64,000 nt of DNA from Eledone cirrhosa (lineage: Eukaryota). The position numbers and the translations under genes are program-made. Below, in pieces: positions 346 to 1,649 of this stretch (the stretch's first letter is position 1; each line of letters starts with the position of its first letter). The notes under the pieces are model-generated. The model worked only from the letters and a program-made list of their open reading frames with translations. It was not told where the DNA came from and made no database searches. The stretch is taken from assembly GCA_964016885.1 (NCBI GenBank), contig OZ024759.1, forward strand, positions 34,100,001-34,164,000, in the 5' to 3' direction.

Positions 346-533
346 TGTGATTCGAGCATTTATATATGCATATATATGTACATACAAAATATATATATAT
401 ATATGTATATATACATTTGTGCATTTATATATATATATATGAAGTATTTCCGTAGGAAGGGTAAAGGAAAGGAGAGTGCTCTATGAATGCTACAGAGCTA
501 TTTAATTATGCAATAGACAACACAAGACAATTA

Positions 534-606
534 TTCCATTTACCAAAGGTTTCACGAAGACAGACGAGCTCAACAGAGACGTCTGAAATCGCTCATCAGA
601 ATGAAA
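534..606 (-). ncRNA. Type I hammerhead ribozyme motif, mirror copy
   Basis: Reverse complement of 633-705 with one change in loop II; core intact. Confidence 0.85.
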
Positions 607-632
607 ATGTAATATTAAAATTAATATTACAT

Positions 633-705
633 TTTCATTCTGATGAGCGATTTCAGACGTCTCTGTTGATCTCGTCTGTCTTCGTGAAACCTTTGGTAAA
701 TGGAA
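633..705 (+). ncRNA. Type I hammerhead ribozyme motif
   Basis: Stem I TTTCATT/AATGGAA; core CTGATGA (640-646); stem II GCGA..CAGACG/CGTCTG..TCGT; GAAA (686-689); stem III ACC-TTT-GGT; GUA triplet (696-698). All conserved core positions are present. Confidence 0.85.
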
Positions 706-1649
706 TAATTGTCTTATGTTGTCTATTACATAATAAATAAATATATATATATATTTCGCAAAGCATGTTGTCCGACGCTCTACCGGTTTTGCCAATATAC
801 CACCCTTTAATAATGCATTCTACATCATTCTGTTTCTTAAACCTCACAAATAGCAGTTCTCTGCCTAAAAATGGGGATTAAAATCTGTTTGATTACTGAA
901 GCACCTGGAACATTTTTACAATCGTCATTATCAAATATTGGACTCTGGTCAAAGGAATAATTAATTTACACATTTTAGCGTTGTTTGAGGAGCCACAAAC
1001 TGCTCAGCAGCAGTTCGATTTACTAATGTTTGTATAAGCTACGTTGTGTTAAATCACAAATAAAAGAATTATAATTGGTGTGTGATGGCAGTGTTTGCTG
1101 AGTTAGTTTGAGTTTGATGCAGGTTTCAGAGCTTTTTGAGGATAATGTTAGGCTAACAGAAACCTCGCAGTTGCTTCTAATGCGATTATAATTATTCATA
1201 CACATACACATACACAATAATTGTATTCAAACACAAAACATAAAATGTATTATGCATGCACAAACATGTCATAACCCTAAATGAAATGCAAACACAACTG
1301 TTCATGCCCGCCCGCAAACACATTCATAAAGACATACAGCGGGTTACAAACACTAGCCTCTTTTGACAAACACACATATGCATATATTCCCATGCTGTTA
1401 TGCATACACACACAATACATGCACAGAAAAATACACATATATAACAAAATAAATAGGCATATATATGCATACATATATACACATATACACATGTATGAAC
1501 AGATGCAGCTTTAAGCGAAAACGCATATATACACACCAATTGACAACGTGTTTATACGTGTACACGCGTTTCAACCCCTACACACGCATAATTACATATT
1601 AAACGTTATATAACCATAAATGGACATTGTGGTGCTAATGCACTGAAGC

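Follow-up and report, generated by a model that had tools for sequence, protein, structure and literature searches.

The sequence at positions 441-739 of the window, the 64,000-nucleotide stretch of Eledone cirrhosa DNA analysed here, is very probably made up of two short, hammerhead-bearing pLTR pieces of a Penelope-like retrotransposon with Hydra-clade motifs, which meet head to head within a (TA)n repeat; they likely arose, as an inactive by-product, from a single abortive insertion. The sequence-only reading of this locus had proposed a mobile palindromic mini-element or a self-silencing ribozyme switch. Neither a mobile palindrome nor a selected switch is the explanation; the locus is an insertion product already known from Penelope-like elements, an inverted pLTR with a tail. 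The same reading had correctly connected the locus with the inverted pLTRs of these elements, and the features of an endonuclease-positive Penelope-like insertion were found: a parent with linked reverse transcriptase (RT) and GIY-YIG domains, a pLTR that carries the hammerhead, 5' truncation of variable extent next to an inverted truncated copy, and a tail at one end only.

The palindrome consists of two arms of 117 nt each (502-618 and 621-737), which are 97% complementary, differ at 4 of 117 positions and are separated by a spacer of 2 nt. The near-perfect palindrome with a 2-nt centre and one hammerhead motif per strand is thus present as first described, with 6 mismatches across the 119-nt arms given at that time. 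Folding of the palindrome as RNA gave -181.3 kcal/mol (z = -36), a value that none of 200 shuffled sequences equalled. The start of the element had been set at 500, but comparison from copy to copy showed that the left arm actually runs to about 441, as a tail that is unpaired by the right arm. In the same comparison, the long arm on the minus strand (441-618) is a 5'-truncated pLTR copy ending at a distal, or tail, terminus, with its outer end against the TA repeat uncertain by 1-2 nt, and the short arm on the plus strand (621-739) is a 5'-truncated pLTR copy ending at a proximal, or short, terminus. The tail of about 57 nt (441-498, minus strand) occurs on one arm only, and tandem copies run on from it for 112-120 nt to the start codon of an open reading frame (ORF). 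At the head-to-head junction (616-623, centre 619-620) about 8 A/T bases are unlike the reference copy in the alignment, and both arms match the reference copy starting 16 nt upstream of the hammerhead core. Both outer ends adjoin (TA)n target repeats, located at 426-440 on the left and at 741-754 on the right. A short high-copy repeat at 762-803 of the window, seen as a depth peak, lies just to the right of the element.

Both strands matched a gapped hammerhead pattern, the plus strand at 640-698 and the minus strand at 599-541. The plus-strand type I motif (633-705), which was supported by pattern match and fold, has a stem I of 7 bp including one G-U pair (633-639/699-705), CUGAUGA at 640-646, stem II at 647-685, GAAA at 686-689, a 3-bp stem III and a GUA ending at A698, after which cleavage is predicted. 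Its mirror copy (534-606, minus strand) was recognised by pattern match, with a predicted cut after 541. The CUGANGA, GAAA and NUH core elements and the three helices of a type I hammerhead were all found, with a pair probability of only about 0.2 for helix III. The pair 10.1-11.1 is G-U and not the canonical G-C; related motifs carry other pairs or mismatches at this position. The Rfam comparison that had been proposed as a check matched no hammerhead family at the gathering score nor at E values up to 10; the best of the 46 matches at E up to 10 were generic miRNA hairpin models. In isolation, 633-705 reaches the hammerhead fold at -13.3 kcal/mol against a minimum of -15.4 kcal/mol (2.1 kcal/mol apart), with helix III about 20% formed, whereas in a 442-760 transcript the pair probability of helix I is 0.0. 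The stability of the duplex exceeds that of the hammerhead fold by about 170 kcal/mol. These predictions bear out the earlier proposal that read-through RNA would lock the ribozyme in a long duplex, and read-through RNA of the 441-739 copy is predicted to fold into the long duplex and not to cleave.

The parent element was reached by walking upstream of the arm, across a microsatellite-rich region, to a GIY-YIG endonuclease. When 20 regions were picked solely by endonuclease DNA, a hammerhead arm was present within 10 kb in 10 of them, and four of these (L205, L213, L215 and L216) carry a piece of the ORF flanked by two inverted arms, as a kilobase-scale version of the palindrome. An arm or tail piece stands directly upstream on the same strand at 18 of 30 ORF starts, many of them from related families (72-93% identity); measurements in four copies place the start codon 112-120 nt beyond the tail, and in tandem copies the hammerhead is located upstream of the ORF, within the pLTR. 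The parent protein, read from the broken copies L206, L208, L222, L203 and L155, comprises an RT followed by a C-terminal GIY-YIG endonuclease and carries RWK, DKT (a changed DKG), a CxCX5C linker, CxxC and CxH. The CCHH motif is absent from the endonuclease, and no cysteine was present inside the GIY-YIG box in either of the two copies printed. The top match in the ESM Atlas scored 0.97, and neighbouring eukaryotic clusters include RT, GIY-YIG and PF26215 members; a Pfam search of the endonuclease piece and a PDB search of the RT-endonuclease piece returned nothing significant. Among the copies read, no intact ORF of the parent family was found. In these motifs, the parent family matches the Hydra clade of Penelope-like elements.

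Several RT and endonuclease ORFs near early loci belonged to other families, and only the ORF tied to the arm was kept. In the 3' region of the parent, upstream of the arm (L101, L102, L114 and L119), TA/TG microsatellite tracts lengthen the copies to several kilobases and draw in further insertions. Nested within the TA tracts of family copies are other Penelope-like families that have similar motifs (L158:5563-7917 on the minus strand, L154:5742-6932, L151, L164 and L169), and one such nested family has an open frame of 785 residues.

Within the 3.0-Gb assembly, 1616 candidates were obtained, and all 40 loci that were scored matched most of the 240-nt palindrome. To describe the architecture of the family, a 31-mer located 3' of the cleavage site was used, which has 606 exact matches; the first 100 of these (contigs C1 and C2) gave 85 loci. 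With arms paired within 500 nt, so that partners more than 500 nt away were missed, 50 of the 85 loci are head-to-head pairs and 35 are single, two of the single loci having no qualifying alignment. Two whole hammerheads were present in 9 of the 50 inverted pairs, one in 17 and none in 24. A second, core-anchored sample of 62 loci contained 36 inverted and 26 single loci, with both cores in 22 of the 36; its search pattern biases it to whole hammerheads, and the 85-locus sample is the fairer one. Arm ends fall at two preferred sites about 57 nt apart, named short and tail, and TA-rich repeats adjoin most arm ends in other family copies. Of 42 classifiable pairs, 40 combine a short-ended with a tailed arm (p = 4e-10 compared with an even mix), while 8 further pairs have an end outside both classes. 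At their other end, 29 of 133 arms start in a cluster 7-20 nt upstream of the core, so that palindromes with two hammerheads are somewhat commoner than under a flat distribution. Ribozyme cleavage as the source of the arm 5' ends was ruled out, since arm starts at the cleavage site (8 of 133) are in line with neighbouring bins.

Related families with a different stem II also form small head-to-head palindromes in TA repeats (L125:1000-1400, L130, L148, L235 and L250), and the head-to-head pattern is thus not confined to the family of 441-739. At L050:1603-1657, the centre of a palindrome contains 54 nt (96% identical) from around the parent ORF start, reversed relative to the printed plus strand, which is likely the result of a template jump.

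Whether the palindrome is copied as a unit can be judged from its centre. A mini-element that moves as a palindrome, suggested by at least 40 loci that are alike across most of the 240 nt and by one centre common to two loci (L259 and L082), is largely refuted and retains only a very small probability. A search of the 3.0 Gb that tolerated one mismatch recovered the junction of 441-739 only once; by our reading of the core-anchored table, 49 of 50 two-core centres are distinct; L259 and L082 are only 93-94% identical, about the family average of 93%; and the spacing of the arms ranges from tens of bases to kilobases. A search for other copies sharing the fold-back centre had been put forward as a test of the novel readings, and it went against them: 35 of 85 loci are single-armed and the others have variable fold-back points. 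A self-silencing switch under selection, or a dsRNA substrate of ADAR or Dicer with a host function, is just as improbable. Such a role would fit the predicted duplex of about 117 bp in read-through RNA, which blocks the hammerhead, and the isolated arm, which lies within 2.1 kcal/mol of the hammerhead fold; yet two whole hammerheads occur at only 9 of 85 sampled loci, the stability of the duplex makes it a lock and not a switch, and incidental editing of such hairpins, plausible in itself, would not confer a function. Nor is the core protected from mutation. Across 71 loci, the mean number of loci with a variant per column was 2.75 in the core, 2.81 in non-core non-CpG columns and 7.9 in CpG columns (p = 0.75 for a lower value in the core), in a family-wide test over 12 core columns for which sampling favoured an intact core and beyond whose reach the co-option of one single copy lies. 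The inserted copies look neutral, because core columns vary as much as non-core non-CpG columns. The core is retained in five divergent motifs from the fetched loci, while their stem II sequences, each of which folds (-7.9 to -13.6 kcal/mol), differ; this suggests selection in the source elements, with the stem II folds as the only independent part, as core, helix I and helix III were required by the search pattern. An assembly or library fold-back artefact is the least probable of all. None of the sequencing records from four runs (short contigs and reduced-representation/RAD reads) spanned the whole stretch, which is uninformative as to the assembly, but 4 of 117 positions differ between the arms, each arm has its own fixed outer end, and the same combination of a short and a tailed arm is found in 40 of 42 other pairs.

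How the two arms came to lie head to head is less certain. In the preferred account, the endonuclease of the element would have nicked the TA repeat, and reverse transcription would have started at two sites about 57 nt apart, giving one cDNA per target strand; both cDNAs would have ended just upstream of stem I, and their ends would have been joined within A/T-rich sequence. The presence of a hammerhead in each arm would then simply follow from the position of the motif, no more than about 110 nt from the short start site. The likely role of the hammerhead in the parent is the processing of tandem transcripts, aided by dimer formation or protein. Alternatively, one cDNA (or antisense RNA) may have folded back and copied itself, with later deletions at the unstable centre giving lopsided pairs. 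This course of events is possible, although we consider it the less probable one. Long palindromes undergo central deletions, which counts in its favour, as do several centres on short self-complementary words and an over-representation of exactly symmetric junctions (8 lie within 2 nt, where 2.0 would be expected; p = 0.0002), a group to which the 441-739 copy belongs. Arms of one locus also share variants, 1.37 compared with 0.14 between arms of different loci (46 loci), and diverge by 4.3% compared with 6.8% between different loci; this tenfold sharing and lower divergence point to one template or one source element, or to later conversion. Self-priming has moreover been proposed for rotifer elements in the available part of PMC3846280. 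Among 40 short-plus-tail pairs, the arms are nearly equal in 16 and the tailed arm is longer in 13, and these 29 pairs also fit fold-back of one tail-primed cDNA. In the other 11, however, the short arm extends past the 5' limit of the tailed arm by 15 nt or more, which leaves neither arm a subset of the other. Asymmetry shows no increase with divergence (68 pairs of a narrow age range; Spearman 0.015, p = 0.90). Since these 11 pairs need later deletions under simple fold-back, the asymmetry is flat with divergence, and the related enzyme characterised in PMC11167929 nicks and extends both strands, we infer that two primings joined head to head are the more probable origin.

The rule of one short and one tailed arm suggests coordinated priming at the two start sites. 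The palindromes could thus be fossils of coordinated twin priming, in which one Penelope-like ribonucleoprotein would begin a cDNA on each of the two nicked strands, at two fixed sites of a single RNA separated by 57 nt, so that one stretch is copied twice, and would link the cDNAs head to head; we hold this fuller scheme at slightly less than even confidence. If true, it accounts for the inverted pLTR and the one-sided tail in one step. In the literature searched by title and beginning of abstract, no twin-priming account of Penelope-like elements was found; it may be stated elsewhere. The 441-739 locus itself is ordinary transposon debris. The part worth following is the short-plus-tail rule, which bears on how inverted pLTRs and tails form, and the family supplies hundreds of natural products on which twin priming can be tested. 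The family appears to be an abundant Hydra-type Penelope-like element, and few members of that clade have been described. Hairpins of this kind could incidentally supply dsRNA, their transcription being hypothetical.

Elsewhere in the window, one compact core that resembles a hammerhead and has a short stem II is located at 59633-59666 on the minus strand, in an unrelated A/T-rich context, and is possibly the end of another Penelope-like family. Loose matches to the hammerhead pattern at 31695-31746 and 14908-14964, both on the minus strand, fold without a clear hammerhead. At 60725-61465 on the plus strand, an ORF piece ends in an endonuclease-like motif, which we take to be the restriction-like endonuclease of a non-LTR retrotransposon.

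According to the available sections of PMC8557442 and PMC3846280, an adjacent inverted truncated copy together with a one-sided tail is typical of Penelope-like elements. The 441-739 copy shares head-to-head 5'-truncated copies, a tail at one end, a pLTR hammerhead and an AT-rich target with the endonuclease-positive inverted-pLTR insertions described there, and differs in that both of its copies are shorter than 180 nt and hence lack an ORF; the tail of the Eledone cirrhosa family is also longer (about 57 nt) than the 30-40 nt usually quoted in these sections. With the Hydra clade, as presented in section 11 of PMC8557442, the family has in common an RT followed by a C-terminal GIY-YIG domain, the RWK, DKT, CxCX5C, CxxC and CxH motifs, the lack of CCHH, a (TA)n target and a hammerhead. 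It differs from this clade by its long microsatellite-rich 3' region, and the likeness is one of motifs. No description of the family was found in the literature searched; an octopus genome paper (PMC13282606) names Penelope-like families, and the accessible portion of its main text mentions neither hammerheads nor Hydra.

Non-LTR retrozymes and viroid-like RNAs resemble the palindrome in their type I hammerhead, rod-like fold and ribozyme motif per strand. Retrozymes are tandem units, as outlined in the accessible text of bioRxiv 10.64898/2026.07.22.740005, whereas 441-739 is a single head-to-head insertion with no sign of a circular unit and without enrichment of arm starts at the cut site (8 of 133). 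The comparison with viroid-like RNAs made in the sequence-only reading is superficial, because the two ribozymes are mirror copies of a single sequence that derives from a protein-coding retroelement. A closer parallel in arrangement is found in Schistosoma mansoni, where the available part of PMC4209133 describes minimal hammerheads that form pairs across the two strands at distances of 100-700 bp and whose activity is low or requires dimers. There, as in Eledone, two Penelope-type type I hammerheads lie nearby on opposite strands and are tied to truncated elements; the Eledone cores are closer, with 40 nt between them, and have a 3-bp stem III.

The Poseidon enzyme of Anolis carolinensis was studied in vitro, and the excerpts of PMC11167929 at hand report that it nicks and extends both strands of AT-rich DNA, that two start sites define the tail and that insertion proceeds without hammerhead cleavage. 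Two reverse-transcription start sites downstream of the hammerhead (putative ones in the Eledone family), which define a tail, and an AT-rich target are common to Poseidon and the Eledone family. The two differ in the ORF start, which in these excerpts lies inside the hammerhead in Poseidon and which is located 112-120 nt past the tail in the Eledone family, and in the use of the start sites: no difference in start site between the strands was seen there for Poseidon, whereas the Eledone pairs almost always consist of one short and one tailed arm.
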